Source: Leptospira sp.
Lineage (GTDB): Bacteria; Spirochaetota; Leptospiria; Leptospirales; Leptospiraceae
Direction of reading: 5' to 3'
Assembly (NCBI GenBank): GCA_034439575.1
Contig: JAWXAQ010000013.1
Location: 1-18,632, forward strand
DNA length: 18,632 bases
The position numbers were made by a program, and so were the translations under genes. Every line of letters starts with the position of its first letter. Within the stretch, counting starts at the first letter, position 1. Below the pieces are notes generated by a model. The model was not told the origin of the DNA. It saw nothing but the letters and a program-made list of their open reading frames with translations, and did not search any database. Below, piece by piece: positions 2-17,800 of the stretch.

Positions 2-922
2 CATAAAACATATTATGAAAAATTAAATCTATTATCTAAGAAAGTTGCAGAAAGAAAAATAAAGAATCAAGAAATTAATGACTTATCTGAAAAAAGAGAA
101 AAACTAAAGGAGAAACGTTTAACTTTAATTAAAGAACTTAATAATTTTAAAAAGAATTTGTTTGATTTACGATTAGAAAAAATTGCGGAATTAAATAATA
201 AATTTGAAGGCCAAGTAAAAATCACTCTAACTCCAGGTGGAATTACAGAAGAATTCGAATCTAAATTGAAGAATGCTTTAAAGGGGAATAATATTCGTTA
301 CAATACAATAGTTCCTCAAATAATTCAAAATCTTACTCCTGATAGATTTGCTTCAATAATTCATGAAAATAATGCAAATAAATTAAGTACACTATGTAGT
401 ATTGATATTGAAAAATCCCAAATGGTGATTGAAGTTTTGCAAGAAACAGAGCTTATTTATGAAATTGAAAGTATTTACTGCCCTGACCAACCAGACTTTC
501 ATTTGCGGGTTGAACAAAATATTGTAAAAGATGCTCCTGGTAGCAAATTTAAATATAAAAAATCGGACGAATTATCTACTGGCCAAAGGTGTACAACAGT
601 ATTGCCAATAATATTCGCAATATCTAATAATCCATTAATCATAGATCAACCCGAAGATAATTTAGATAATAAGTATATTTCTGATACTATACATAAAATT
701 ATTAATGAACAAAAACAAACTAGACAATTGATTTTTATAACACACAATGCAAATATACCTGTTTTGTCCAATTCAGAGCAGAACATTTTCCTGCAATATG
801 AAAATCAAAAATCGAGCGTTTCTCATCAAGGGAATGTTGATTTTGTTAAAAGTGAAATTTTAAATCTTCTAGAAGGCGGTGCAGATGCTTTTAAGAAAAG
901 AAAATCTCTATACGGTTTTTAA
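2..922 (+). CDS. C-terminal part of an ABC/SMC-type ATPase (TrlF/Ppl-like); 5'-truncated by the window edge
   Basis: The frame is open from position 2, so the 158 start is internal. A coiled-coil region is followed by the signature LSTGQR, Walker B/D-loop LIIDQPEDNLDN, H-loop ITHN and terminal LLEGG..AF..R, as in PHP-ATPase/TrlF-like proteins. Confidence 0.8.
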   Translation, partial: HKTYYEKLNLLSKKVAERKIKNQEINDLSEKREKLKEKRLTLIKELNNFKKNLFDLRLEKIAELNNKFEGQVKITLTPGGITEEFESKLKNALKGNNIRYNTIVPQIIQNLTPDRFASIIHENNANKLSTLCSIDIEKSQMVIEVLQETELIYEIESIYCPDQPDFHLRVEQNIVKDAPGSKFKYKKSDELSTGQRCTTVLPIIFAISNNPLIIDQPEDNLDNKYISDTIHKIINEQKQTRQLIFITHNANIPVLSNSEQNIFLQYENQKSSVSHQGNVDFVKSEILNLLEGGADAFKKRKSLYGF

Positions 923-930
923 AATTTTTT

Positions 931-2751
931 ATGGATCTAAACTCTCTTAAATTACAATATCGGATTGCCTTTGATAAAGAAGATTTTGAATCTATTTCAG
1001 AAATAGTATCAATATTAAATCACGAGAAGTCCGAAAACAAGGATTTGTCACTTGAGTTTTACCGTCAAATTGAGGAGGAAATATTTCAAAGTGGTAGGAG
1101 CATTCGCAATTTAAATTCGAAAGCTTTCGAAGATTCAATAAAAAATGCAATATCCATTGGGAAAACTCAATCCAAGAAACAAAAAACTATAAAACCGATA
1201 ATAAGTCCAGAGCCAAAAGAAATTAAATATTTTCTCGAGTTTTATAATCGACATCAAACTATATTAGAACTCTTGAATGATTTTTTTCTCATCAAATTGT
1301 CGAATATTGAAATATTGGAACGACCAAAAGTCTTATTTTTATGTGACTCTGCTAGTTTACATTTACCATTAATTAAAGAGCTTATGCAAAATGAAGAAAT
1401 TCATGATAATTTAAAATGTATTAAACATGCGATCGAAGATGTATCTACGCTTTTCCCAAACAAGAAAGCAATTGATAATTATCTTTGTCTATTAATCATA
1501 ACTCCGAACTTAAACACTAATATTGAATGGAAGGGATATATTGAACAATTTTTAGGATATTTTGATGAAAAATTATTCATTACTATTAAAAGTCGCAATA
1601 ATCAAATCACATTAAAAGACTATAATGAAGAACCAATTACAGATAAAATAGTTTTAGACATCTTAAACAATATAAACAAAGTTTTTTACAACAAAGTAAT
1701 TACTAATGACCAACAACGTCTGATCAAAAGTTTTTTTCAAAAAATGAGTGGATCGATTACATATCGATTACTAAACCCTGGGGCTAGCGGTGCTTCAGTA
1801 ATTGAAGTTCAAGGTACCTCTATTTATGGCGGTAGCATGAAAAGATACGTTGTCAAGATAGCCCAAAAAACCAATGCTCAAATAAGCAAATTGAGCTCAG
1901 AAATAGATAAGTTTAAAGAATTTGTAAAACATTATTCAACGATTAAAACTACTTATAGTGCAGATTACCATGAAAATGAAACCTTAGAAGCAATTTTTTA
2001 TAATTATGCTTCTGCCGGTAGCCTAACGGATGCATTGCCATTTGCTAATTTACTTACTGATATCTTAAGTAACAAAGGTCAAATCCTAAATGTAACTACT
2101 GCTTTATTGAATTGTGAACTTTTTAATGCCTGGAAAACCTCCTCCAATGAATTTGAAACCTATGGCAATCTTTATCGAGATTATATAAAAAATGAGAAAA
2201 AAATAAGGGAAGCTGTAGCTGAGATTGATGATAAGGAAGTAATCCTTCCCAATCTATTTAATTTTTATGACCATGTGATAAAATTAAAAACAGATATTAA
2301 AAAGAAAATATGCCATGGAGATCTACATACGGATAACTTTTTCTATGATGGAAACTTTGTTACATTGATAGATTTTGGCTTTACTGGTAATCATCATGCA
2401 ATCATTGACCATGTATTCCTAGAAGCCTCAATTAGGTTTAAACATTTTCCAAAATATATTCCTATTTCCGAATTAATTGATTATGAAAATAAATTTTCTG
2501 ATATCAAAAGTTTTAAGGACGATTTTAATTTAGATTTCATCAAGCGACCAAATCTAAAGATCTATTACGAAATTATATCCCTTATTCGCAAGGATTCATT
2601 AAAATATCTCGTAAATCAAAATGAACCTACTGAATATCTTTTATCTCTTTTCTTGATATCTTTTAGACAAATTCAATATCCAGACTTAAATCAAATTTAT
2701 GCACTTAGATTTTCGGATGCTTTATCGAAAATAATTAAATTAAGCACTTAA
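931..2751 (+). CDS. APH/phosphotransferase-like kinase (TCAD9-like) with a long N-terminal extension, 606 aa
   Basis: Gly loop PGASGASV, VVK lysine, catalytic HGDLHTDN and IDFG. Starts 8 bp after the ATPase stop. Confidence 0.75.
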   Translation: MDLNSLKLQYRIAFDKEDFESISEIVSILNHEKSENKDLSLEFYRQIEEEIFQSGRSIRNLNSKAFEDSIKNAISIGKTQSKKQKTIKPIISPEPKEIKYFLEFYNRHQTILELLNDFFLIKLSNIEILERPKVLFLCDSASLHLPLIKELMQNEEIHDNLKCIKHAIEDVSTLFPNKKAIDNYLCLLIITPNLNTNIEWKGYIEQFLGYFDEKLFITIKSRNNQITLKDYNEEPITDKIVLDILNNINKVFYNKVITNDQQRLIKSFFQKMSGSITYRLLNPGASGASVIEVQGTSIYGGSMKRYVVKIAQKTNAQISKLSSEIDKFKEFVKHYSTIKTTYSADYHENETLEAIFYNYASAGSLTDALPFANLLTDILSNKGQILNVTTALLNCELFNAWKTSSNEFETYGNLYRDYIKNEKKIREAVAEIDDKEVILPNLFNFYDHVIKLKTDIKKKICHGDLHTDNFFYDGNFVTLIDFGFTGNHHAIIDHVFLEASIRFKHFPKYIPISELIDYENKFSDIKSFKDDFNLDFIKRPNLKIYYEIISLIRKDSLKYLVNQNEPTEYLLSLFLISFRQIQYPDLNQIYALRFSDALSKIIKLST

Positions 2752-2766
2752 AGTATGAGAATTACG

Positions 2767-3118
2767 GGCATTATGCAGAACCTTTCGCAAAATCAAAATT
2801 AGACTCTCTCAGGCGAATAGCAATTGGCTTTCAAAATTTAATTTATCTAATTTGCTTACGTCAAGATATTTTTTATTTCCCCATTGAGAACTAGCTATAT
2901 GCCTTAATCTTGCTGTAGCGAACATTAGAGCAGGCTCTACATCTGGGAATGATCCAATTGTCAGAGACAACTAATTTGACACCTGTTAATCCAAATGCCT
3001 TAGAAATCCATACCATACTTCCTTATCTTCCTTGGCACCATCCATTGATCCTGAAACCTCTTTATTTCCCTGAATGCTTTGAGTTTCTTTTTTTATCTCC
3101 AGATAAATGCAAACTTTT
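2767..3118 (-). mobile_element. IS256-family relic with internal deletions and a retained right end
   Basis: Minus-strand fragments read FREI (3063-3074), DGAKEDKEVWYGFLRHL (2992-3042), GLTGVKLVVSD (2960-2992) and GSFPDVEPALMFATARLRHIASSQWGNKKYLD...FA* (2809-2955), matching the Mutator/IS256 transposase core and C-terminus. GGCATTATGCAGAACCTTTCGCAAAA (2767-2792) resembles an IS256-type terminal repeat. Confidence 0.8.
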
Positions 3119-3135
3119 ATTATGCGATGTGGATG

Positions 3136-4815
3136 TTATATTATTTTCCATGTTATGATAGCTAATTTTGCTAAATATTTTTGCCTATTATCGATAGACT
3201 CTTTATTCCATTCGCTATTGCTGATTAGCGAATTAGTTAATTTGAATGATGATAGTTGATAAATACTTTTTTTCTTTCCGAATGAATCATCTTTTATACC
3301 AGAATTACTTTTTTTCTTCAATAAGCAAAGATTTCCCATTCGTCGGAAGTAGAATTGATGATCACCCTCAGTAAAATAATTCCAATTTGGACTTAGTTTT
3401 TGCGGTAGGATATGTTCAAGTGTAATTTGTTCTGAATTATCGTTTATAATAAATTCTGGTTCTTTTTCATCTATTAATGTTTTCTCTAACGATCTTAACA
3501 AATATCGTGCGACCTCGGGTTTATTTGAGGAATAAGCAGCAAATGATTTTTCAAATTCCTCATCTGTAGGAATAATTTTTTTCATTTCATCTAACAATGA
3601 ATCTGCAGTTTTAATTTTCTTATCATTTATTAATTTTGCCTTTTCAGAGAAGTTAATTTCTAGTCCTGAACTTCCTAATCTTCCGCTAATTATAAATCTT
3701 ATAGTCCACGATAATAATCTCTTTATAGTTTTTTCTAATTCATGTTTCTCAAAATTTTGTAATATAGATAAAAGCAAAGGCCTGTTCTGTTGCATTCCAA
3801 GCATTTTTAAAATCGATATTGCACTTTTGGTTTCTAAATTATACTTTTCCCAAACCTCATGATCTGTATTTAATAAAGCAGTATAATAATAAGAAGCAAA
3901 AACTAAATTTTCTGATTGTTGAAGTGCTTCTGTACTGTTAGAAATATTATTCTTAATTTTTGAAAATAACTCTCTTTGTCGTGTTAATCCTTCTTGTGTT
4001 GACCAGTAATGGCGAATAAAATCGACGAGCAAATTTTCTTTATCTATTGCTTCAAGAGAAGAAGTCATTTCAATCCAATTTGATTGAACAGATTTTATTT
4101 TCTTTCCGGATTTCGAAAATAAAAGGTTTTTTAATAAATCTGATACAGTGAGAACTAGTCCGCGATCATTAAGAGTCTCAAAAATTGTATAAGCATATGA
4201 ATAATCTTCGACTTGAATCCAAATTACTTTTACATTTTCCTTTATGAAGTTTATCCATTTTGCAAATTGTTCATTTTTTTCCTTATTTCCTATAATTTCT
4301 TTTTTTATAAACTTAATAGCAAGTTTATAAGCCAATAAAAGTTTCTCATGTGATTCTTTATTGAAACTAGAAGAATTTTTTTTATTTCTCGAAACAATAT
4401 GATCGCTATAGAATATATTGTCTTCTGTGTTTAATTGTAGATTTTGAATTAATTCTAGGGATTCTATATCTTTTGAAAAAAGATAATCCTTTTCAATAAT
4501 GTCAGCCCTTTCCGTATCTCCAATATCGATAAGTATATCTCTAAATGCAGTCAGTAAAATGGAAGTTGTAGCAATTCTTTGCTGGCCATCTACTATTTCG
4601 CTATAGCCATCTTCAGTTTTTAATACTACTATGGAACCTAAGAAATAATCTTCATTTTTATGTGAAACTGATTCATTGATATCCTCAAATAAATCATTAA
4701 TTTGTTTTTCTTCCCATGAGTAGGATCTTTGGAATGGAGGTACTGAAAGCTTTCCTTCGGATAATACCTTTCCGATTCCCTTAATATCAATTTGAGACTT
4801 ATCTATTTTATTCAT
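3136..4815 (-). CDS. gmrSD: DUF262-DUF1524 fused GmrSD-type (type IV, modification-dependent) restriction endonuclease; SspE has the same architecture
   Basis: Motifs VPPFQRSYSW, IVDGQQR and IFETLNDRG (DUF262), and LEHILPQ...GNLCLL....N (HNH, DUF1524). Confidence 0.9.
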   Translation of the reverse strand: MNKIDKSQIDIKGIGKVLSEGKLSVPPFQRSYSWEEKQINDLFEDINESVSHKNEDYFLGSIVVLKTEDGYSEIVDGQQRIATTSILLTAFRDILIDIGDTERADIIEKDYLFSKDIESLELIQNLQLNTEDNIFYSDHIVSRNKKNSSSFNKESHEKLLLAYKLAIKFIKKEIIGNKEKNEQFAKWINFIKENVKVIWIQVEDYSYAYTIFETLNDRGLVLTVSDLLKNLLFSKSGKKIKSVQSNWIEMTSSLEAIDKENLLVDFIRHYWSTQEGLTRQRELFSKIKNNISNSTEALQQSENLVFASYYYTALLNTDHEVWEKYNLETKSAISILKMLGMQQNRPLLLSILQNFEKHELEKTIKRLLSWTIRFIISGRLGSSGLEINFSEKAKLINDKKIKTADSLLDEMKKIIPTDEEFEKSFAAYSSNKPEVARYLLRSLEKTLIDEKEPEFIINDNSEQITLEHILPQKLSPNWNYFTEGDHQFYFRRMGNLCLLKKKSNSGIKDDSFGKKKSIYQLSSFKLTNSLISNSEWNKESIDNRQKYLAKLAIITWKII

Positions 4816-4838
4816 ACAAAGTTTTTTTCAACAATTTC

Positions 4839-5001
4839 GTATAACGAACTAGTCTTACCGAAAGTTTCCTGACCCAGAGTCCCGAATAGGACGTGATTGA
4901 CTAGCACGTAGCCTGCGTATGCAAGCGAGTGACAGAAGAGGACTGTGGCGTAGCACGAGCGCGGGCTTGTGCCGAATCGTAGAGTTAAGTCGCTCTTATG
5001 C
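4839..5001 (-). repeat. Long attC-like site (163 bp)
   Basis: GC-rich island in AT-rich DNA between two co-oriented genes. Minus strand: R''-like GCATAAG, 5 bp, CTTAAC ... GTAAG, then R'-like GTTATAC. Internal hairpins GCTTGC-ATAC-GCAGGC and GTCCT-ATTC-GGGAC. The next ATG is about 30 bp after the GTT. Confidence 0.7.
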
Positions 5002-5029
5002 GTAGCATGCAAATTATAATGTTAAATGT

Positions 5030-6217
5030 TTAGTAGTTATCGAATTCAAAATCTTCAATTACTTCGGGTTGCTTATCATGAGAACTCCAGTTGAGTATGT
5101 CAAAACTGCCCTTAGAAAGTCGATAATTTGTCGCATTGGGGTTTAAATATATATAGGTTTTATATAGATTTTCCCCTTTTTGTATAACACTATTATCTAC
5201 TATGAAAACTATTCCACTAATTTTTTCAGATATTTCTTGCTGCGTAATAGGTACTTGGATACCCAATGCTGAACTAATATCATCCTTACAATTCTTAAAT
5301 TCTATGAAAATTCTTCGTGAAAATGCTCTATAAAATGTTTCAGTCAAGCTACTTCCAATCGCTTCGCGATTAAACCAAGGATTTATTACAAAAGTTAAAA
5401 GGCTAGGCTCGTCAATTAGTAGTTTATTATAATAATCTAACCCTTTGAATTTATTCTTTTGAGCTGCTTCATAAGGGTTAAATGTATCTTCAGTGATGAG
5501 ACTTACTATTTTGTTGCCATTTGGATACGCCATTCTGAATTTATATATATTTCCGCTTATTGTTGAGTAATTTAAAATAGCTTTATCGTCATTAATCGCC
5601 TCAACTAGGGCATCGATTAACTTTCTATTTTTTAATTCTACTTGTATATCTGATTTTACGGAAAGATAATTTCCTCCATTAAGGTGCTCTATTCCGATTA
5701 GAAAGTCTTTATTTGGTATTAGTTTTTCGACTTCTTCAATTATTCTATCTATTAGTTCGAAGTGAGTTGGAATGAATGACTTAACATCCATATATATTTT
5801 TTTAAATTTAAGGTTAAAAGAAAGATCTAAGTCTAGGGTTTCTTGCCCTATTTTTTTTGCTAAACTATTTGGCATTAGATTGACATCACCTTTTACAACA
5901 AACTTGAAATCATCCAAATCTTTGAAGCTTGTCCAGTAATCCAATGCAACGAGTTCAGAATATGGCCCAGACCATTTATATCCTTTTTTGTTACCAATAT
6001 CTTTTACCGTATTTTTTAGTTCTTGGTAGTCTCCAGGTATGGATTGGAATTTACTTTTTAATCGAATCAGTCGATTTATAAAATTCGTATTAAATTCGGT
6101 ATACTGAGAATTATTCAGAGCGCCGATACAATTATTTGTTAAGTTTAAGTTCTGATAATGAACTTCCTCTTCAAAAATTTCTTTGTAAATTCTTTTAAAA
6201 TTTTCTAAATCACTCAT
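5030..6217 (-). CDS. Hypothetical protein, possible PD-(D/E)xK nuclease fold (395 aa from MSDLE)
   Basis: The ATG at 6217 has an AGGA RBS, while the 6259 start overlaps the cassette end repeat. Motif order is YSELVALDY ... LDLDLSF ... YMDVKS (DVK at 5780-5788). Confidence 0.55.
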   Translation of the reverse strand: MSDLENFKRIYKEIFEEEVHYQNLNLTNNCIGALNNSQYTEFNTNFINRLIRLKSKFQSIPGDYQELKNTVKDIGNKKGYKWSGPYSELVALDYWTSFKDLDDFKFVVKGDVNLMPNSLAKKIGQETLDLDLSFNLKFKKIYMDVKSFIPTHFELIDRIIEEVEKLIPNKDFLIGIEHLNGGNYLSVKSDIQVELKNRKLIDALVEAINDDKAILNYSTISGNIYKFRMAYPNGNKIVSLITEDTFNPYEAAQKNKFKGLDYYNKLLIDEPSLLTFVINPWFNREAIGSSLTETFYRAFSRRIFIEFKNCKDDISSALGIQVPITQQEISEKISGIVFIVDNSVIQKGENLYKTYIYLNPNATNYRLSKGSFDILNWSSHDKQPEVIEDFEFDNY

Positions 6218-6545
6218 TTTGTTTATCCTATATTTATTTAAATTTTGCATATTACACATAAAGGATTAGGCAAGACGACGTTTTACCTAAGCGTCTCTGC
6301 AGAAGTTATTATGTAACAAATGCTCGGCGAAAATAGGGTTCGATTCTGCGAATAATGTAACCAATGTAAGAAACTACCGAGAGACATATTCTGATCGTTC
6401 GAAATAGCATTTGTCAGACTAAAGCCAATAATCGTCCGCCGAACTTTTATCCAGAAATCCAAATCAGAATAAAAGTTTGATCCCTTGAATGCAAACCACT
6501 TTCTTAACCCGTCCGCAGAATTTCCGACGTATCCAGGAAGCAATT

Positions 6546-6765
6546 TCGTATAACGAATTTCGCTCATTATTCGTATAACATCTCTAGTTTTAACATATGA
6601 ACGCAATACATTTTTAACACCTGCTAGATGTTTTTTAATCTTTCAAGATCTGTTTTATGTCTCAATTTTCGAATACTTTCACATTTGAAATCTCAAATTG
6701 CTTTTGAATACCTCTTCTTTTGACGCAATATGGCACTTCCCATAATCAACATTATGTCGCATAAC
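6546..6765 (-). repeat. Cassette leader copy 1 (attI-like GTTA boxes plus dif-like site)
   Basis: TAAC boxes end at 6554, 6579, 6594 and 6618. A 40-bp block at 6600-6639 is 39/40 identical to 8238-8277, and 6658-6675 is 17/18 identical to 8297-8314. GCACTTCCCATAAT is shared with copy 2. Confidence 0.75.
6735..6762 (+). other. XerC/D dif-like site
   Basis: ACTTCCCATAA-TCAACA-TTATGTCGCAT has the 11-6-11 layout; compare B. subtilis dif ACTTCCTAGAA-TATATA-TTATGTAAACT. Confidence 0.6.
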
Positions 6766-6923
6766 AAACAGTATGCGATTGTATGGAAAGGCACATCGGT
6801 AACTCTTTGAACAAGTCACAGGGGTTACAGATTTATTCGTCTATTATATGCAAGAGCTTTTGATATTTCAAGACTTTACTTGTATATAAATCTAAAATAC
6901 CAATGATTGCGGTCGCAAAGTAT

Positions 6924-7004
6924 ATCTAACAGCTCAGCCTGCAGCGCAGGCGTTAGTCCCGAGCGTAGTGTGTGCCGAAGCATTGCATTGAATCGCAGTT
7001 ATGC
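6924..7004 (-). repeat. attC-like site (81 bp)
   Basis: Minus strand GCATAAC ... GTTAGAT (canonical GTTRRRY), about 20 bp after the stop of the 7024 gene. GC-rich, and shares TTCGGCACA, CGCTCG and TCGGGACT with the 4839-5001 site. Confidence 0.75.
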
Positions 7005-7023
7005 GACATTGAATTCTATAATT

Positions 7024-8157
7024 TCATTTTTTTGGTGCAAATCGAATCAGAATATTTTTAATTCCCGATCCATCTTTCACATTTAAATCTATATCTTTAC
7101 CAATTTGATTATTTATAAGTTCGTTATATGTGATCCAAGCTTCACCGATAAGATCATCATTTTCTATATCTTTATCAATTACGCCGAATTGAAGTAAGTC
7201 TCCTTCATTTAGTGTATAATTTTTTTCGAGATTAAACGTTGGGTCTAAAATGTCTTGAATTTTATCAGAGGTAAAAAATAGTTCACCATTTAAAAATATT
7301 TTTAGAAATGGATCTGGTTTTCCTCCTAGTGCATCCCATGCCTTATCTACTCTGGGTTTTAAATTTGAAATTTTCACTTTTATATATTTAATTCGATATT
7401 CTTCGCCTGTTTTAAATTTTGCACTTTGGAAGTTAATGGGCATTGATTGAAAAGGAGTTAAAACTTCATATTCAATGAAAATAGGTACTTCCTTTTGTGA
7501 AACATTAAAATGATTTTTAACTTCAAATGGATTTGTTATTATATTTGGCGAATTATTGACGCTGCTTAATCCAATGAGTTTAATTTGATTTTCAAGCTTG
7601 AATTCTCCTAAGGTATAATTGATATCAGCATTCGGCAGTATGTTCGATAGAGACATTAGTTTCAATCTAGCTTCGCTATTGAAATCAGATTGCGTTCCGC
7701 TTATAATGTAATGAATAGACCAACCATAATATATTCTTTTTAGAAAGAGTTTTGCGTTGGGATTTGCGACTCCGCTAGAGTGATAGGATACTGTTTTTGA
7801 AATGTGGTAAACAGAAAGAACTGCAAATCTCTTTTCCTCTGCTATCCTTGTCTCCCCGCTTAGAATCCCGAGAAAATTTGCATTGGCAGACAGTGAAAAA
7901 TTATTTTCTAAAATATTTAGCTCGGAAATGTATCTTTCTTCAGTAGTGGTTTCTATTTCTCCGGATTCAAATGCACTGATATTCTGCATTTTTAAATCTT
8001 CCTTAAAAGAGTTTCCTAATTGCTTCTGGCTTACTCCAACAGGTGCAGGAATTTTTATTAAGTCATGTTTTTGGTAATTTCCATATTTTTCAATACTCTG
8101 CTGGGCGCTTATAATCGTCGTAATAAAGATAATAATTGTTAAAAATTTGATATTCAT
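7024..8157 (-). CDS. Secreted protein with a C-terminal C2 domain and a possible MACPF/CDC-like N-terminal domain (377 aa from MNIKF)
   Basis: AAGGA RBS before the ATG at 8157. Signal peptide MNIKFLTIIIFITTIISA. C2 motifs WDALGGKPDPFLKI, QDILDPTFN and VIDKDIENDDLIG with Ca2+-type aspartates. The N-domain assignment is tentative. Confidence 0.7.
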   Translation of the reverse strand: MNIKFLTIIIFITTIISAQQSIEKYGNYQKHDLIKIPAPVGVSQKQLGNSFKEDLKMQNISAFESGEIETTTEERYISELNILENNFSLSANANFLGILSGETRIAEEKRFAVLSVYHISKTVSYHSSGVANPNAKLFLKRIYYGWSIHYIISGTQSDFNSEARLKLMSLSNILPNADINYTLGEFKLENQIKLIGLSSVNNSPNIITNPFEVKNHFNVSQKEVPIFIEYEVLTPFQSMPINFQSAKFKTGEEYRIKYIKVKISNLKPRVDKAWDALGGKPDPFLKIFLNGELFFTSDKIQDILDPTFNLEKNYTLNEGDLLQFGVIDKDIENDDLIGEAWITYNELINNQIGKDIDLNVKDGSGIKNILIRFAPKK

Positions 8158-8183
8158 CTTTTCCTTATAGATATTATTCAATG

Positions 8184-8404
8184 TCGTATAACAAAATTCT
8201 TCCGTGATTCGTATAACATATCTAGGATTAACTTATAAACGCAATACTTTTTTAACACCTGCTAGATGTTTTTTAATACTTACATGGCCAGTAATTTGTC
8301 TCAATTCTCGAATAACATTAGATTATGTAACGATCTTTGTTTGAAGTGGATTATTACTTGAATCAGCATAGTGCACTTCCCATAATGTGTCATCTTCGTA
8401 TAAC
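8184..8404 (-). repeat. Cassette leader copy 2 (attI-like GTTA boxes plus degenerate dif-like site)
   Basis: TAAC boxes end at 8192, 8217, 8232 and 8256, with the same 25/15/24 spacing as copy 1. ACTTCCCATAA arm at 8375-8385; the second arm is degenerate and ends in TCGTATAAC. Confidence 0.75.
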
Positions 8405-8420
8405 TTATTTTCTATAAAAT

Positions 8421-8843
8421 TTATAAACAATCCACAAAAGTATCAGCCTCTTCTTTATGGGAAGAATATATACGAATCGAAGAAGTCATTTCGTTACTAA
8501 AACTTAATGTAGATTTATCACATTGAATCGAAGTCGTTTTTTGTAATATGGATGTGAAATTACAATAAAAACTCTGTTTACCATCAATATAAACAATTGC
8601 TCTATCTTTATCAGGTAACCAAAGACTCATATCTTTGAATGAATCTCTTCCAGAATAGATCTTATATAGTATATTCTTATATATAATTTCAATTAAGTAT
8701 TCATTTGTATTTTCCTGCGTATCCTTGGATTTTATGACTGGAATACCATTTGATGGGAAGCCAACTAATGCTACTGTTAAAAATACGAATGAAGTATCAG
8801 AATTCCATTTTAATTTCTTTATTATGTCGCAATTCGTTTTCAA
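8421..8843 (-). CDS. Hypothetical protein, start uncertain, possibly 5'-decayed
   Basis: 140-aa ORF in AT-rich DNA with a TTG start and no clear RBS or motif. Confidence 0.4.
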   Translation of the reverse strand: MKTNCDIIKKLKWNSDTSFVFLTVALVGFPSNGIPVIKSKDTQENTNEYLIEIIYKNILYKIYSGRDSFKDMSLWLPDKDRAIVYIDGKQSFYCNFTSILQKTTSIQCDKSTLSFSNEMTSSIRIYSSHKEEADTFVDCL

Positions 8844-9047
8844 TTCCAGATTACTGGCGTTATAAGATCGACTTTACCTTACTAAATCAAAGTTAATGCT
8901 AAGCTAAATAAAATTTAATAAGTGTAACAACAGAATTTTTTTTCTTTAATCTTTATTCGAACCGACTTAAGTTTTACGACAAGGCCTGATCCAAATTTTT
9001 CTCTTTTCCGTAGTTATTGAATTGAAAACGCAGCATATATCCCCAAA

Positions 9048-10145
9048 ATGAATACTATGTGTATTAAGGTTCAATTCCTATTTCTTTTTATTCTCACTCT
9101 GATTAGTTGCACCTATCACCATTATCCAAATGTAAACGATTCGAATAATCTTTCGCATGACTCTCAAAATCTAAAGATAGGAGTGTCAATACTCAGAAAT
9201 TTTGATTCTAGATTCAATGAAAACGGGGAAACAGAGAAAATTAAGCTAATTGCCCAGGCCACCAAACAAGTAATTAGTTCTTTGAATGAGAAAAATGGAG
9301 CACAGAAGTATGAGTTTTTGGATACAATTGGTGACCAACCAGATTTTGATTATTCACAGGATTATAGAAATTATCTGAAGAAAAATCTTATCGAAATTCA
9401 ATATGAAAACTTATTAGGTAAAAAATCCAATTTTTTTGCTTTGGGAATATATTCGAGATCCATTTGGAATTTTAAAGTATCGGTTTATGATTCTGATGGC
9501 TTGAAAACAGAAATCAAGGAACTGAATTTAGAGCCGATTTCACAATTGGTCGGAATTTTTCTTTTCCCAATTTTATTTTACCAATCAAACGAAGACAGAG
9601 ATAGGTTAGCTGAGAAAAGATTAAATATAATAATTCGTCAGACCATAGAAATGGCTTTTTCACGTGGTATTAAATTTGAAAACTTTGATTCATCATACAA
9701 GATATCTAAGCTTCCATTTAGGATGAAAATAAATCGTGGAATTTGTGATTCCATCATTCCCACTGGACTAAATGCTCCAGGCATTCGCACAACCTGGACT
9801 CCAAATAATCTACATCGTGGATGTGATTTCGTAATCAATTTCTCAAATAAAACTGACAAAATAATTAATATCGACACTCAGCAATTTACTCTTGTTACAG
9901 ATAAAAACATTCATTCACCAAAGAAAGAAATCAACATCTTCCAGAGAAATATTTCTGGAAATGCTAGTTCAACAAATACATCTGTGCAGCATTTATTACA
10001 AAGTGTAAACCTCCAACCTAATACAACAGGCAATGAAAATATTGAATTATTCTTTGAATATCCCTTCAATGAAAAACCTTTATTCGTTAGATGGCAAGAT
10101 TCAAATCAGTCAACGTCTGTAGTGGAAGTTACAGTTCCTAGGTAA
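9048..10145 (+). CDS. Putative lipoprotein with a C-terminal DUF4352-like Ig-type domain
   Basis: Hydrophobic leader FLFLFILTLIS-C21. C-terminal pattern FVINFSNKTDK...FTLVTD...LQPN...ELFFEYP. Confidence 0.6.
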   Translation: MNTMCIKVQFLFLFILTLISCTYHHYPNVNDSNNLSHDSQNLKIGVSILRNFDSRFNENGETEKIKLIAQATKQVISSLNEKNGAQKYEFLDTIGDQPDFDYSQDYRNYLKKNLIEIQYENLLGKKSNFFALGIYSRSIWNFKVSVYDSDGLKTEIKELNLEPISQLVGIFLFPILFYQSNEDRDRLAEKRLNIIIRQTIEMAFSRGIKFENFDSSYKISKLPFRMKINRGICDSIIPTGLNAPGIRTTWTPNNLHRGCDFVINFSNKTDKIINIDTQQFTLVTDKNIHSPKKEINIFQRNISGNASSTNTSVQHLLQSVNLQPNTTGNENIELFFEYPFNEKPLFVRWQDSNQSTSVVEVTVPR

Positions 10146-11827: not shown

Positions 11828-14800
11828 CTATTCTCCTTGTTCCCGACTCGGTTTTGGTGGCAGGAAATTATAAATCGAGTGACCATTTAAAGTTCCTGTG
11901 ACACTCGGATAACTCTCAAAGTGTGGTCTACCGATATGTCCGATGATCGGTGCAAAGATATTATTTTGCATTAGATTTAATGGGTCAGTGTTTACCACAT
12001 AAGTATCAATTTGTCCTGATCCAGTCGAAAAAATGTTTGATAGACCATTCGTCATGAAATTTGTCCCAGCAGGATTAAATGTAATAGCAGGGATTCCTGT
12101 CTGCATAGAAACCATAGAAGCTAGTCCGCCACCGAGGGAATGACCAGTAGTTACCATAATTGCATCTGGATCATTTGCTTTCATATATTTTTCTATTTTC
12201 TTCATTCGCTCTAATGCTTCACTATGCTGACTTGATAAGCCTCCGACTGCTCCAAAATTTGCACCCCAATCGGTTCCATTCTCAGTTCCTCCAAAGGAAA
12301 TTGTATATACTACCTTCCCATCTCTCTCTGTCCTGAATACTTTCATGTCAAGTCCTGTTTCCTCTCCGATAATTTTTGGTCGTTGACTACTAACGGCTAA
12401 TCTCGGAATCTCTTCTGTTCCCACCGGAAGAGGTCCATTTGCCCAGTCACTATAAGACGCGTGTGCTAGCAAAGCGGCATCATCTCTTGATAAAATTTTA
12501 GGATCAACAGCAGGCGCTCCGGAGGCAATGTGACCAACCGATTTAAATGGCTTAGTTACATTCTTCCAAATTGATTCTGGGAACTCGCTGAAAGAATTCA
12601 TCATTTGATCTCTCGTGGTTTCGCTTCTAGTAAATAATCCCTCATTCCAAGAACGGTCTTTGATTAGATTATCTACCATTTTCACTGGGGAGATAATAGT
12701 ATCCAGACCAGTATCCAGAATCGCCAAACCTGATTGTAAGGTTGTGCTCAATAATGTTTTTCCTATACCAGCTACAGAACCTAATGTTTCCATTGCGACA
12801 GTTTTTATATTTGTCACAGCGTGACTAACGGTACCTAGTGATCCAAAGGCACCGATTGCTAATTTATTTAATCCAACACCCATACCTTGGAAAAGTTTTC
12901 CTGGTTGAATCAACGAACTTGGATTCCCTAAAACTTTTAGAGGTAAAGTTCCAACTTCTGTTCCAATTTTCAAGAGTCCAGTTGTCATATCTGCAACGTT
13001 TCCAATCGCATTACCAAAAAAGGGAACATAATCCTTTATTACTCCTACGTCGCGAATTGAATCACCTAATCGTAGAAATGCGCTTGAAACTCCATTAAAT
13101 GCCCGATCAAGACCTCCGGCCACTGTAGCAATTCCTCTTCCAGTTGCTGCAATTCCATGCCCTATTGGAGACAATACATTGTCATACAATTTGCCAGGTA
13201 ATTTACCAATTCCACCGACTATTGTATCGAAAGTGGAACGGGTCCCATTAACGATTCTATCTGCAAAACTTGGACTTTGTTCGACTGCTGGACGAGGGTC
13301 TGGAATCTTAATTTTTTCTCCACCATAAAAATAGCCTCCATCTTTATCACGGTTGAGGGCTTTCGGGTTGGCAGCCATCAATTCGTCTCTGGTGATTCCA
13401 TTTCTCTCTGCAATCGTTACAGCCCTTTCACCATTTTTCACCGTATAACTATCATTATGCACCCATACCCCTACTTCACCAACAAAGTAAGTATGGAAAT
13501 CTTCCACTTCAAAGTTATAAACTGTTTCTTCTCTATGATCAATAACAACGGAATCTACAACTAACAGAGTTCCATCAGCAACATAAGATCGATCACCTGA
13601 CTTAAGATCCTTCGCTTCTACCCATTCTGAGTTTTCTATTGCAAATTGTTCATTAGTTGCCGATGACTTCAGTCTTCTAAATGGGTGGTTCCAAGTTGTC
13701 TCTAGAATTGTGCCATCTGTGAATCGCACTATATAAATAGCATCCGTTTGGCGGATAAAGGTGTTTACGACTTTTTTATACTCAACGTCACCAGTCGTGT
13801 CAGACTTAGATAACACTACATCATCAACTTTGATCTCTTCAATGTTCTTTAGTCCATCTATGGTATGGATTTTTGTCCCTGCGGTAAAACAAGTGCGTGG
13901 GTGAACTTTTCCATCAGAATCAACAATCATATTTGCTGTGGAGACAGCCTTTCCATTATAGAAATTGAACATGTTTGCAACACCGTCTGTGAAACCACCA
14001 AAAAACTGACTAAACATGTTGGTTCTAGATGTTCCTAATCCTTTAGTTCCCATTGGTTGTGTGGACTCACTTGCTTCCTTTTTTCTTTTTTCCATCTCAG
14101 CATCAACATTATCTCGTGCTTGGTCTAAGTTCTGATCGACCCAATCAATTTCCCCAGCCGTAAATCCGTTAGGTCCATTCGAGCCAATACTATTTCCACC
14201 TACTCTTCCACTAGCTGTTGTTCCACTACGGTCTATACGATAACTTCCACCCACACCGTCCCGATTGAAAGACGCAGTTCCAGACATTCCATTCTGTGAA
14301 TCATAGTTAGCTGTTAAGGAAACACCATTCCCAACATTTAAAGTATAACCAACATCATAGTTACTTTTGTGAAGATTGTAATTAATAGTAGCATTACTTA
14401 CACCTGCACTTATGCGTGTATCACCTCTTTGGCTAAAATTGACACTCGCGTTTCCAGAGCTGCCGCCTATTCCAATGGCTCCACCCCATTTATTTTTGCT
14501 ATCGTAACTAACTCCAATTCCAAGACCTGTATTCTGAAGAAACGATGCAGCTGGACCGAGCATTGCATTTGCGTCAAACGTTCCCGCAGTTAATACACCA
14601 ATGGCTCCATTCACAAAACCTGCAGCCATTCCATCAATTCCGTTCCGAGAACCGTCAATTACTTGCACTGCTCCTTTCACAACTGCGGCGCCGACTTGAA
14701 CAGCTGTTGTTCCAGTGACTCCAACAAAATTACCAACAGCTTTGAGTGCGTTTGCGACTACAGACATCGGTCCAGTAACAACCGCAGCTGCACCAAGAGT

Positions 14801-17800
14801 TACCACTGTAGTCACCGCCGTGATGGCCGTTGATCTTATAGCGTCAGCTTGTTGTTTCTTATCAGCTTTTCTTTGCTCCATCGCGCTATAACCTTTACGC
14901 AATGCTGCATTAATTATTTCTTTCTCTTCCTTCGTTCTCCCCTGTGCCAAAAAATCAACTGTCATTCTTTGACCAAGTTCCTGAACTAACCCTTCTTTGT
15001 TTTTCAACGTAGGAGTTGCACTAGTATAAGTCGTCCCAGGTGCCTTCAAGCCAAGTCTAGTATTGGCATTTGCCTCTGACTGAATTTCTGCCCAGCTAGT
15101 TTCTAAATTTCCAGAGAACATTACTCTATTGCCATCTTTGATTGCGCGTTGGATATCTCTGTCTTTTAATCCAAAGGCATTTGCCGCTGTTTTAATAATG
15201 CCACCGCCAATTCCATCGATTTGAGCAGAAATCGCAGTAATCGGATTCCCATTAATAGCACGACGGATTTTTTTAGCTGCGAGTGATCCTTTATAATCCG
15301 TAATCATATTCCCGATCACTTCTGCGGGTAAACCAGTAGAGGTGGCGACAGCTTGAGTCACATTGGATTGGATCATAGATTCAGTATTGGCTTTGATTGC
15401 GGCTATTGTATCTTTCGGACCTGTAACTCGATTCATGGTTGCTTCATAGGCTTTCGGTCCCATAGCAGTGCGAGCTAAAGCAGCCGTTAAACTATTCGAT
15501 AGCTGGTTTAAAGTTCCAAGGCCTGGTATTTGTGAAATTACTGAATTAGTAAATGTATTATATTTAGCGGCGATATTTTCGATAGAGCGAATTGGATTGT
15601 TAATAGAAAGAGTATTGGATCTTGTCTTGATATTTCTTTCTTGCATTTTTCCTTTCATGAAACTTACAGCTTGCGCAAGCATCGCAATCTGGTCTTCATC
15701 AGCTCCACTCGCACGCGCCCAGGCTTCGGCAATACCTGTGTTGATTTGATCTTCTATCTTGTTTTTGATCGCTCCATTAACACCAGCCATACCGCCAGTT
15801 ATGTATGCTAGGATTAAGTCTTTGATTAGAGAATCCTGTGCCTGTTGAGCTTGTTTAGCAGCTTGGAATCGATTGTTGTTATTCGATTCAACCGTAGATA
15901 TCGATGTCACAGCTCCTATTAATAAATTCGAATCTGATGTGAGTCCTTTAGTATAAAAATTGTTCATCACATTGCTTGCTTGTGCTGAAAAATCATTCCA
16001 ATCAGAATCTCCCCAAACATCAAATAAATCTTTACCATTAGGCGCAGTGACAGGTGCCACCATAGATAAAGTTACATATCGTTTTTCTTCCTGAGTTCCG
16101 CTGATATACTTTCCAGAAGAATCCCGACCACCAATTCGACCATTGCTGATATTTTTAGTGAGTGTCACTTGTAAGGTTTCTTTATTGAATGAAGAAATAT
16201 AATCCTGTCTTAGTTCACTGCATGATGTTGGATTCACATAACACGAACCAGACAATCTCTTTTCTGCATCAGTCAAAGTATTTTCTTTTATCAAGCCTAG
16301 CTTAATCATGGTATTTCGATCAGTAAATGATTTTACGATCATACCATCTTGGTATTCATAGCCTCTGCGTTTTAATTCATCATTAACTTGTTCTAATGAG
16401 ATATTATACTTTGCTGTTGCGTTTTTATCTTTTTGTAAAACGGCGAGATATCCTTTTAAATATTCTTCACCTATAAAGTTTCCTTCCTTATCATATTGCC
16501 CAACGGCTCTATCTTCCCAGCGAATCCCATAAGACATCTGGTTGATTAGTTTTTCTTGTTCTCTTATTGCCGCATTCGCATTGTTTTCGTTTGTCGATAG
16601 CAACTGCGAATACTGGTAAACTCCATTCGCAGTAGTCTGGAATACACTTGCCAAATCTTTATCTTTGATAGAAAGCGAAGTCTCTACTTTTTTGTCAGCT
16701 GCGGCACTAAATATATTATAACTTCGCGTGGTCTCTGTAACTGTCTCAGCTTTACTAATGCCAAGTTTATCTGCCACACCAGATAACATAAAAGAATCTG
16801 AATTCACAAAATTTTTAGCTGTTGTTAAAAATCCATTATCCTTTGTAGTCATCCCAGCTGAGGACAAGTATTGGTATGGACCAACAGCCGCTTGGTTCGT
16901 AGATACATCAGTAAATGTAAACTCGCGCGACGTCAGATCATTATAAGAATTATCATAATTTGCTAATACAGTATTTGTTCCTGTAGAAAAATCCGACACT
17001 CCAATGCTTTGAACACTGGCTTGGAAATTTGTTTTTACAGCACTTAGATTTCCATTGGCGCTAGATTGGTTGATTTGATTTTCTAGCCCTTGCCATTTAG
17101 CCACCCCATCCTGATATTCCTGTCCAATTTTATTTAACCATGTCTGTTTCTTAGTTTCTAAATCTGATAAGGAATTTTCATAATCTAGTCTTGCTTGGTC
17201 TCTTAGAGTCTGAGCCTGCGTTTGCCATGCTGTATAAAAATTATTATAATTTTGAACTTGTGACTCCCAGTTACTTATCGCTGGGTTGATATTTGTATTG
17301 TATTGGTTCAACTGGTTGCTAAGCGAACCTAAGTTACCTGACCAGTAGCTCGCATGATCGGCCATGCCTTGGTCACGCATAGTATATGCTATACCATACG
17401 TTATATGATCCATCTGAAATCGATCCGTCCAAGCGGCGCAAGCAGCAGGTGCAGGATAGCAAATTGCTCGATTTGCTTCCCAAGTAAATGCACCATTATT
17501 TTCTAATAAATAATTGCCCCGAGTATGAGTTTTACTTATATAAGCAAATTGATCTGTTTTATTTAATTCTTGTAAATCAGCTGTGAACACATTAGAAGCG
17601 ATAATATTAACGATGGATCTACCAGATGTTCCGCCTAATCGTCCTTGAAGTGTGTTGTATATAGTTGTATAATCCCCAGTTCTTATAGCTCGAACCATAT
17701 TTCCGATATCTGGATCTACAATATGCTCTCCACCACGATATTGACTGCCAGTGTTAATTGTATTCCAGTCATCATAAGTTCCATTTACTGTATTCGAGAT

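Follow-up and report, generated by a model that had tools for sequence, protein, structure and literature searches.

A duplicated dif-containing module in the cassette-array remains of a Leptospira genome, possibly a compound tyrosine-recombinase site

Described sites and the duplicated module

The integron site attI1 is composed of a simple site accompanied by two direct repeats, DR1 and DR2, and clusters of attC sites without an integron integrase are known as CALIN. The Xer sites cer and psi carry approximately 180 bp of accessory sequence on their XerC side, where accessory proteins bind. The locus described here is to be compared with all of them: it is a module of approximately 220 bp, present twice in a stretch of 18,632 nt from Leptospira sp. 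(contig JAWXAQ010000013.1 of assembly GCA_034439575.1, called the window in what follows). On balance, each copy is probably a compound tyrosine-recombinase site, in which a dif site is joined to an attI-like acceptor, lying within the remains of a cassette array.

The dif part is already known, having been predicted for Leptospira in 2011: Kono et al. (PMC3025954, Additional file 2), who seeded their prediction with the dif of E. coli and that of B. subtilis, list ACTTCCCATAATCAATCTTATGTCGCAT for chromosome I and ACTTCCCATAATTAGTATTATGTCACTT for chromosome II of L. biflexa. With regard to integrons, Treponema was stated in a 2013 abstract to be the only spirochaete clade that has them (PMC3607928), and no description of Leptospira cassette arrays or of their Xer-like integrase was found in the literature searched. 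What is specific to this locus is a duplicated, non-hairpin box array that heads cassettes and is joined to dif, in a genome that lacks the array integrase. Given the absence of that enzyme, the module is today most likely a relic.

The window takes in all of contig C13 from a genome (G000) of 4.1 Mb, 36% G+C and 99.98% completeness, whose contigs bear C-numbers; all other G-numbers designate comparison genomes, and L-numbers designate extracted loci. The parts of the module are the following:

6541-6765, plus strand: copy A, with the left 'acceptor' half (6541-6667), the dif flank (6668-6734) and the dif core (6735-6762)
8179-8404, plus strand: copy B, whose left half is 86% identical to that of A, with a dif flank of the other subfamily and a pseudo-dif (8375-8402)
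6546-6554, minus strand: box 1 of copy A, reading GTTATACGA, the crossover core at which cassette W begins
6571-6579, minus strand: box 2 of copy A, the identical 9-mer 25 nt upstream of the crossover in array direction
8184-8192, minus strand: box 1 of copy B, likewise a crossover core, here for the start of cassette X
8209-8217, minus strand: box 2 of copy B, the identical 9-mer
6600-6639 (8238-8277 in copy B), no strand assigned: conserved block, 39/40 identical, which holds AACGCAATAC (6600-6609), the fourth TAAC box (6614-6618) and a palindrome
6757-6765, plus strand: outer box of copy A, TCGCATAAC, which overlaps the outer part of the XerD arm and three further nt
8396-8404, plus strand: outer box of copy B, TCGTATAAC

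The first-pass annotation of this DNA had described two copies of some 220 bp that diverge in the middle and keep four TAAC boxes, and this description is correct. The copies are direct repeats, and both of them end at TCGYATAAC boxes. Their first 99 nt (6541-6639 and 8179-8277) align without gaps and are identical at 85 positions, the block and its palindrome AACACCTGCTAGATGTT (6616-6632 and 8254-8270) included; the sequence then diverges (27/37, followed by 19/56) before becoming identical again in GCACTTCCCATAAT (14/14; 6733-6746 and 8373-8386). As had been noticed, extended similarity stops a few bases (approximately 5 nt) beyond the outer boxes on either side, and a duplication of this kind is beyond chance (BLAST E of about 3e-32).

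The TAAC boxes end at 6554, 6579, 6594 and 6618 in copy A and at 8192, 8217, 8232 and 8256 in copy B, which gives the exact spacings of 25, 15 and 24 nt that had been read as a sign of protein-binding sites. That part of the argument falls, because equal spacing is a consequence of the ungapped homology and thus is not separate evidence of function. The constraint on the boxes themselves stands: the 28 box positions are free of the 14 mismatches found in the first 99 nt, with a P value (0.006) that is somewhat circular, the TAAC boxes having been chosen partly for being conserved; for the two 9-mers alone, over the first 59 nt, the avoidance of mismatches has a P of 0.004. The box word is also concentrated here, with eight exact TCGYATAAC between 4837 and 8404 compared with 308 in the 4.1-Mb genome, and 21 occurrences in the window when one mismatch is allowed, compared with 6.7 expected, a number reached in 0 of 200 shuffles. 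Tandem direct boxes 14-19 nt apart were found, among 41 genomes, at the two sites described here and at one site each in G004 and G045.

Further copies of the left half are absent from the 40 other genomes of the genus, which leaves no third copy for a comparison of box spacing. A 21-mer from the block had no match in the genome contig collection and two in metagenome contigs, both on a single contig with 100% identity to the window; there is therefore no independent copy outside this organism, and any motif profile must rest on the attI sites of relatives. The Logan contigs of four mat metagenomes contain no joint between A and B, a result that is uninformative on excision since such contigs drop rare variants, and their breaks fall at 6704-6720, within the repeated dif flank. 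Small open reading frames (ORFs) occur in the copies, none of them common to A and B, and the ORF at 6283-6567 matched only itself in the protein collection, in which proteins of near length were searched.

The dif region and the insertion sequence beside it

The right part of the module is a genus-wide dif region. Its features, together with the insertion sequence (IS) remnant that adjoins it, are the following:

6668-6734 (subfamily I) and, in copy B, about 8306-8374 (subfamily II), plus strand: dif flank on the XerC side, conserved in the genus
6735-6762, plus strand: dif core of copy A, with the XerC arm (6735-6745), a central hexamer (6746-6751) and the XerD arm (6752-6762)
8375-8402, plus strand: pseudo-dif of copy B, with 11/11 positions of the XerC arm and 2/11 of the XerD arm
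6780-6931, minus strand: IS481-like remnant ('IS-A'), the right end of the element, with an inverted-repeat tip at 6780 and the last 39 transposase codons at 6815-6931

The core of copy A reads ACTTCCCATAA-TCAACA-TTATGTCGCAT and agrees with the site predicted for chromosome I of L. biflexa in 22 of the 22 arm positions and four of the six central ones. The match identifies GCACTTCCCATAAT as the XerC arm and shows that the outer box of copy A overlaps the XerD arm; by this evidence, the genus would be Leptospira or a very near relative. Loci that match 6668-6922 are present in all 24 same-genus genomes and in none of 16 genomes of the neighbouring family, and the alignment of 26 loci with both window copies outlines a sharply bounded unit of approximately 100 nt, which ends in ACTTCCCATAA, six variable bases and TTATGTCGCAT. 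Copy A thus has the 28-bp core with two arms that defines a dif site, and copy B does not.

Three cores with perfect arms exist in this genome (on C13, C16 and C22), the next candidates having at least four mismatches. The flank of the C22 core adjoins a chromosome-I match in five of five complete genomes, and GC skew flips near the C16 core and does not flip at the dif of C13; in the complete genomes of relatives there is one dif match per replicon. The enzymes are encoded as well: XerD is recognised by TIGR02225 at 371 bits (cut-off 329.6), and a XerC-like protein scores 323.8 bits, just under the cut-off of 335.15.

The flank of copy A is closest to that of the C22 copy (65/72) and the flank of copy B to L036-like flanks (52/72), A and B sharing only 51 of 74 positions. 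Since the two flanks belong to different subfamilies, the copies are not a simple recent duplicate over their whole length. These flanks are conserved over approximately 70 nt across replicons and species, in two subfamilies, one of which carries the direct repeat TTTGGAGTAGATT twice, 36 nt apart, and they are possibly an accessory sequence for Xer. On the other side of the core (6752-6779 in the window, and in relatives), the word TCGCATAAC formed by the XerD arm and three more nt frequently has a degenerate inverted copy, GwTAwGCGA, 4 nt behind it, so that dif ends in a small palindrome built of the cassette-core word.

The remnant beside copy A is assigned by tblastn (77% identity of the transposase, E 3.5e-14), and the family by Pfam rve and LZ_Tnp_IS481 together with NF033577 at 221-223 bits, against a cut-off of 224. 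The genome has no other copy of IS-A and no intact IS-A or IS-B. In relatives, IS-A and its sister IS-B lie 14 nt past the box, which is 17 nt past the XerD arm, often one behind the other, and the tip of IS-B was found behind IS-A in five of five cases checked. Both elements (of approximately 1.3 kb, with 5-bp duplications) always have the same orientation at dif and pile up there (L032, L034, L035, L046 and L057; L062-L069 in G009); in G009, five of six further IS-A copies have TTATGTC approximately 21 nt from the insertion point and 5-bp duplications. Homing to dif has been published for the IS1202 family (PMC10132070; bioRxiv 10.1101/2022.12.17.520857), and no report of dif homing by IS481-type elements was found in a literature search aimed at IS1202 and dif only.

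Cassette junctions and the attI-like left half

The window array runs on the minus strand, with these components:

4837-5010, minus strand: E1, a decayed attC-like site, whose R' end (4845-4837) precedes the GmrSD cassette (3136-4815)
5030-6553, minus strand: cassette W, with a 409-aa ORF (5030-6259) and an orphan ORF (6283-6567) whose start would lie inside copy A
6932-7013, minus strand: E2, the truncated attC-like site of cassette X, which resembles the attC consensus of the genus and has its R'' box at 7006-6998
7024-8157, minus strand: gene of cassette X, for a secreted protein with a C2 domain (Pfam C2), which along its full length shares 58% identity with a G004 cassette protein

The nature of this array becomes clear from the rest of the genus. 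A stretch of 20 nt around box 1 of copy A recurs in three other genomes, where it ends GC-rich repeats of approximately 170 nt composed of R'' (CGYATAAC), a 3-nt spacer, L'', a variable centre, L', a 6-nt spacer and R' (GTTATRCG). Folding of these attC-like repeats is strong (z between -2.7 and -5.0, a value equalled by none of 200 shuffles), and they are present in 41 of 41 genomes of the genus, at least 20 of them in most and three in G000. In G049 they recur in regular alternation for 50 kb or more, downstream of a tyrosine recombinase of 367 aa (L125-L127, G049:C1:3477073-3529000), and each cassette there starts with a sequence complementary to its own R'', which is the signature of integron cassettes.

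The recombinase of these arrays, called here the array integrase, matches the integron-integrase model only at profile positions 1-182 and 243-315, missing 183-242, with 192 bits, under the cut-off of 265, and is found once in 37 of the 40 other genomes. The genomes that lack it (G000, G022, G054 and G055) have at most three attC matches each. Very large arrays adjoin this Xer-like enzyme or, in most genomes, lie far from it, as at G045:C1:2.28-2.40 Mb. At the head of that array (2.28 Mb), the stretch examined, which stops short of its end, contains further cassettes with a degenerate R'' and no leader-like site.

Against this background, both copies have a true cassette junction, of the form G|TT, at box 1. 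Cassette X starts at 8192 with GTTATACGACATTGAA, which but for one mismatch is the complement of TTCAATGTCGCATAAC, the R'' end of the attC that belongs to this cassette (7013-6998). Its protein is homologous over the full length to the G004 protein mentioned above (E 2e-153), and the G004 gene sits in a canonical array with attC on both sides and the same G|TTAT start. As for cassette W, its 5' end (6471-6557, box 1 of A included) is 75% identical to G052:C16:2460-2546, the neighbour of which is a canonical attC with the same TTTCGTATAAC and GAA spacer. The left half of the module occupies the place where the arrays of G004 and G052 have attC.

One way to fit an attC into this region was considered and discarded, namely that 6757-7006 is a single site of 250 nt interrupted by the IS. 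The L' that the L'' of E2 would call for is not matched by the 14 nt at 6766-6779, which means that E2 is truncated and that the box at 6757 belongs to dif.

The left half is no hairpin. It does not fold beyond shuffled sequences (z of -0.35, +0.91, -0.18 and +1.06) and has no inverse core on the array strand, and its interpretation as an attC or a gene-less cassette was rejected for this reason, its z values of -0.35 to +1.06 being far from the -2.7 to -5.0 of genus attC sites.

The analogy with attI1 drawn in the first-pass annotation can be assessed with the genus's own sites. A recognisable attI core lies directly downstream of the integrase in seven of 30 integrase loci examined (G049, G044, G016, G004, G052, G056 and G024); two further regex matches lie inside coding-looking sequence. 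In the window copies, box 1, GTTATACG, has the crossover core of attC R', with the cassette starting at G|TT; no copy adjoins an integrase at an array head. Upstream of the crossover, the box at -25 is identical to box 1, and weaker GTTAA boxes follow at -40 and -64, their role in binding an integrase being putative. Anchored on the crossover, the attI sites have GTTTAAC, ATTTAAC, GTTAACA, CTTAACT, TTATCAC or, weakly, GTGTAAA at -25, and none in G056, so that a TTWWAC-type box starts there in five to six of the seven; the copies have GTTATAC. A second motif, ACGCAATWC, occurs six times in five of the seven attI regions, three of them at -20, compared with 37 times in the whole of G000, and each copy has one, inverted, at -55, which is the start of the conserved block. 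The analogy, which holds up better than might be expected, survives in the crossover core and the cassette start, and the direct box at -25 and the lack of a hairpin are compatible with it; with the integrase absent, it does not extend to attI membership, which is not established.

An enzyme other than the array integrase might act on these boxes. A gene on contig C11 (40691-41608; L078:1453-2370) encodes a recombinase of 305 aa that NF040815 places, with 231 bits and above its cut-off, in the XerA/integron-integrase type, and that shares 32% identity with the array integrase; besides XerC and XerD, it is the only candidate in this genome for such a role.

Taken together, these observations suggest how a compound site would have worked. 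The left part would be a double-stranded, non-hairpin acceptor whose terminal box, GTTATACG on the gene strand, served as the G|TT crossover for cassettes W and X, and the box at -25 and the weaker ones at -40 and -64 would presumably be extra sites for a recombinase. Recombination between the bounding 9-mer boxes may have produced the duplication, which would explain why its ends fall on boxes. With its dif intact, copy A could still be a substrate for cutting and rejoining by the genome's XerC and XerD; copy B, having no XerD arm, would no longer recombine with A, and the 1.6 kb between them would be kept.

Several findings weigh against a compound dif and acceptor site. The array integrase is absent from a genome that is 99.98% complete, it does not lie beside the copies, and there is no tyrosine recombinase in the window; an attI could not work now unless XerCD or the C11 recombinase acts on it. 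The attC sites of the window are decayed (E1 has a fold z of -0.17 and no terminal pairing), and cassette W starts with a sequence that lacks complementarity to the R'' of E1. The similarity between the copies and the attI sites upstream of the core is not significant, 8-13 of 27 positions being identical, with placement fractions of approximately 0.02-0.45; ACGCAATAC is inverted in the copies relative to attI, and the box at -25 and ACGCAATWC are both motifs noticed only in hindsight. Among 24 further dif sites, a single one is preceded by a CGYATAAC box in the 230 nt upstream, so that the link between dif and acceptor is without parallel, and contig C13 is not placed on a replicon.

Other explanations, surroundings and known systems

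The alternative that fares best is an inert scar: ordinary sequence that received secondary GTT insertions, leftover R' boxes and a decayed ectopic dif, and that was duplicated in the ordinary way without ever being an acceptor. The missing integrase, the decayed attC sites and the IS remnants agree with it, as do the loss of the XerD arm in copy B, the lack of significant attI similarity outside the core and the restriction of the left half to this one genome among those of the genus. It is nevertheless rather doubtful, because both ends of the duplication lie on the same 9-mer, paired 9-mers 25 nt apart are almost unique among the 41 genomes, and the boxes are free of mismatches while the spacers are roughly half identical. 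Moreover, two different cassettes begin at the same box, and the dif arms of copy A are perfect.

The same evidence can be arranged in an opposite manner, with the module as a working hybrid platform, that is, an acceptor built on dif at which XerC and XerD or the C11 recombinase insert and excise cassettes. The crossover box TCGYATAAC is nearly the outer XerD arm word GTCGCATAAC, and these enzymes could for that reason handle cassettes. This idea seems unlikely; if it were true, the module would link Xer/dif modules with integrons as a living intermediate, in a genus whose array integrase itself looks Xer-like.

A further possibility is a Xer site of the cer or psi type, in which the 190 bp to the left of dif would be accessory sequence that makes resolution selective on a small replicon, and the palindrome would be a box for an accessory protein. 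The geometry is suitable, with the core at one end, approximately 190 bp of patchy conservation on the XerC side and, in both copies, the palindrome centred approximately 125 bp from the core; the 70 nt beside dif are conserved throughout the genus, and the genome has here a third perfect dif beyond those of C22 and C16. The rest of the evidence makes it improbable. At other dif sites an upstream box is the exception (the single case among 24 given above) and the left half is never present, copy B keeps the putative accessory part yet not the XerD arm, and the cassette junction at box 1 is left unexplained. The read depth of the contig (26-36, against 32-35 for the chromosome) also shows that it is not a multicopy plasmid.

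Equally hard to sustain is the notion of a transcription leader or a gene-less promoter cassette, in which TTGCGT and the palindrome would drive the minus-strand cassette genes. Both copies do lie directly upstream of such genes, and TTGCGT is present in both, with TATGTT (B) or GATGTT (A) 18 nt on; promoter-active gene-less cassettes have been reported for Treponema-type and Vibrio integrons (PMC6557892; bioRxiv 10.1101/2023.11.21.568050). The Pc-like TTGCGT promoter that had been suggested for the conserved block is not borne out, since there is no convincing -10 and no -35/-10 pair, with hexamers 16-18 nt apart, conserved between the copies on the gene strand, and a consensus scan of 4700-9100 gives 23 promoter-like sites where 21.6 are expected. 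The sole promoter-like element that is family-wide, TTGAAT-17-CATAAT (8358-8386, plus strand), is the XerC arm of dif. No Rfam family reaches its gathering score in the window. A promoter followed by a structured RNA (TTGACG...CATAAT, then ATGTCGCATAAC) was also considered and dropped, its 'ATAAT-N4-ATTAT covariation' being the dif palindrome.

Finally, the end of an IS or of a miniature inverted-repeat transposable element, a reading prompted by the 25-nt box spacing in the subterminal repeats of the IS481-like elements that adjoin dif (CATCGGTAAC / CATGGGTTAC and CATCCTTTAC / CATACTTTAC at IS-A and IS-B ends) and by the IS-A remnant 14 nt from copy A, is exceedingly improbable, for the left half resembles none of four IS ends (16 comparisons, smallest p 0.065), the copies have no terminal inverted repeat, target duplication or transposase similarity, and the genome has no intact element of either kind; the unit is neither an IS end nor a transposase remnant, the first-pass annotation having named an IS end or a gene remnant as outcomes that would refute it.

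Beyond the module and its cassettes, two more minus-strand features complete this part of the window:

3136-4815, minus strand: gene of a GmrSD-type nuclease, from the ORF list and domain annotation
8421-8843, minus strand: 140-aa ORF, from the ORF list

The cassettes and neighbouring genes at 2-4815 and 11828-18550 are of defence and conflict type, among them an SMC_N-like ATPase with a TCAD9 protein, the GmrSD nuclease and an ankyrin protein; a protein of 2240 aa has a PT-HINT domain and a weak C-terminal lipase-like match below the Pfam cut-off. The toxin gene of the window has only distant paralogues on chromosome I, and positions 1-2750 have no match in five complete genomes. Positions 2854-2959 are the 3'-end remnant of another transposase gene, with relatives at C21:2139-2244 and C32:3516-3627 of the same genome, and its ending is one that we take to be of IS256 type. 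Positions 4834-4940 match the end of contig C21, which on this account probably carries a sister cassette junction. Elsewhere in the genome (C8:232231, C11:42896, C30:65740, C35:32235 and C35:36146) there are five copies of a conserved leader-like element of approximately 150 nt, which ends in AATCTTTCGCATAAC followed by a hairpin, is unrelated to the module and looks like a riboswitch or attenuator family.

If the module is indeed a compound site, it would offer a four-box DNA substrate of approximately 65 bp with which to study how the Xer-like integrase of spirochaete arrays recognises an acceptor. It would also provide a recombination word common to dif and to the cassette core, which bears on the evolution of integrons from Xer recombination, and it would document what remains after the loss of an integrase: three attC matches, decayed hairpins, IS debris and a dif disabled in one arm. 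If it is only a scar, the gain is one of correct annotation, in that the GCACTTCCCATAAT block is a dif arm and not a promoter or a leader.

In comparison with CALIN, the likeness lies in cassettes and attC-like sites in a genome without the integrase. The difference is that here the attC sites are decayed, only two or three of them being recognisable, and the cassettes are headed by non-hairpin box arrays and not by attC alone. The copies share with integron attI sites, those of the genus included, a core identical to attC R', a first cassette that starts at G|TT and the absence of a hairpin, and with the genus sites in particular the direct GTTA-type boxes upstream, one of them at -25. They differ from attI in having no integrase beside them or in the genome, in being two, inside an array, in being fused to dif, and in a box 2 that is a perfect repeat of the core, with no significant similarity upstream of it.

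With respect to the dif predicted for Leptospira (PMC3025954), copy A has identical 11-nt arms and a 6-nt centre, in a genome with genes for XerD and a XerC-like protein; it differs in being a third perfect site, on a small contig, with an IS remnant and cassette relics beside it and a copy without the XerD arm 1.6 kb away. The dif modules of Acinetobacter and their IS1202-family elements, as described (PMC10132070; bioRxiv 10.1101/2022.12.17.520857), resemble this locus in that several Xer-type sites flank a small gene module and ISs home to a fixed distance from a Xer site. In the Leptospira locus, by contrast with those pdif modules, the sites are direct repeats with 190 bp of common flank, of which one is complete, and the modules are integron-type cassettes with attC hairpins; the elements that home belong to the IS481 family and settle on the XerD side, approximately 17 nt from the arm.

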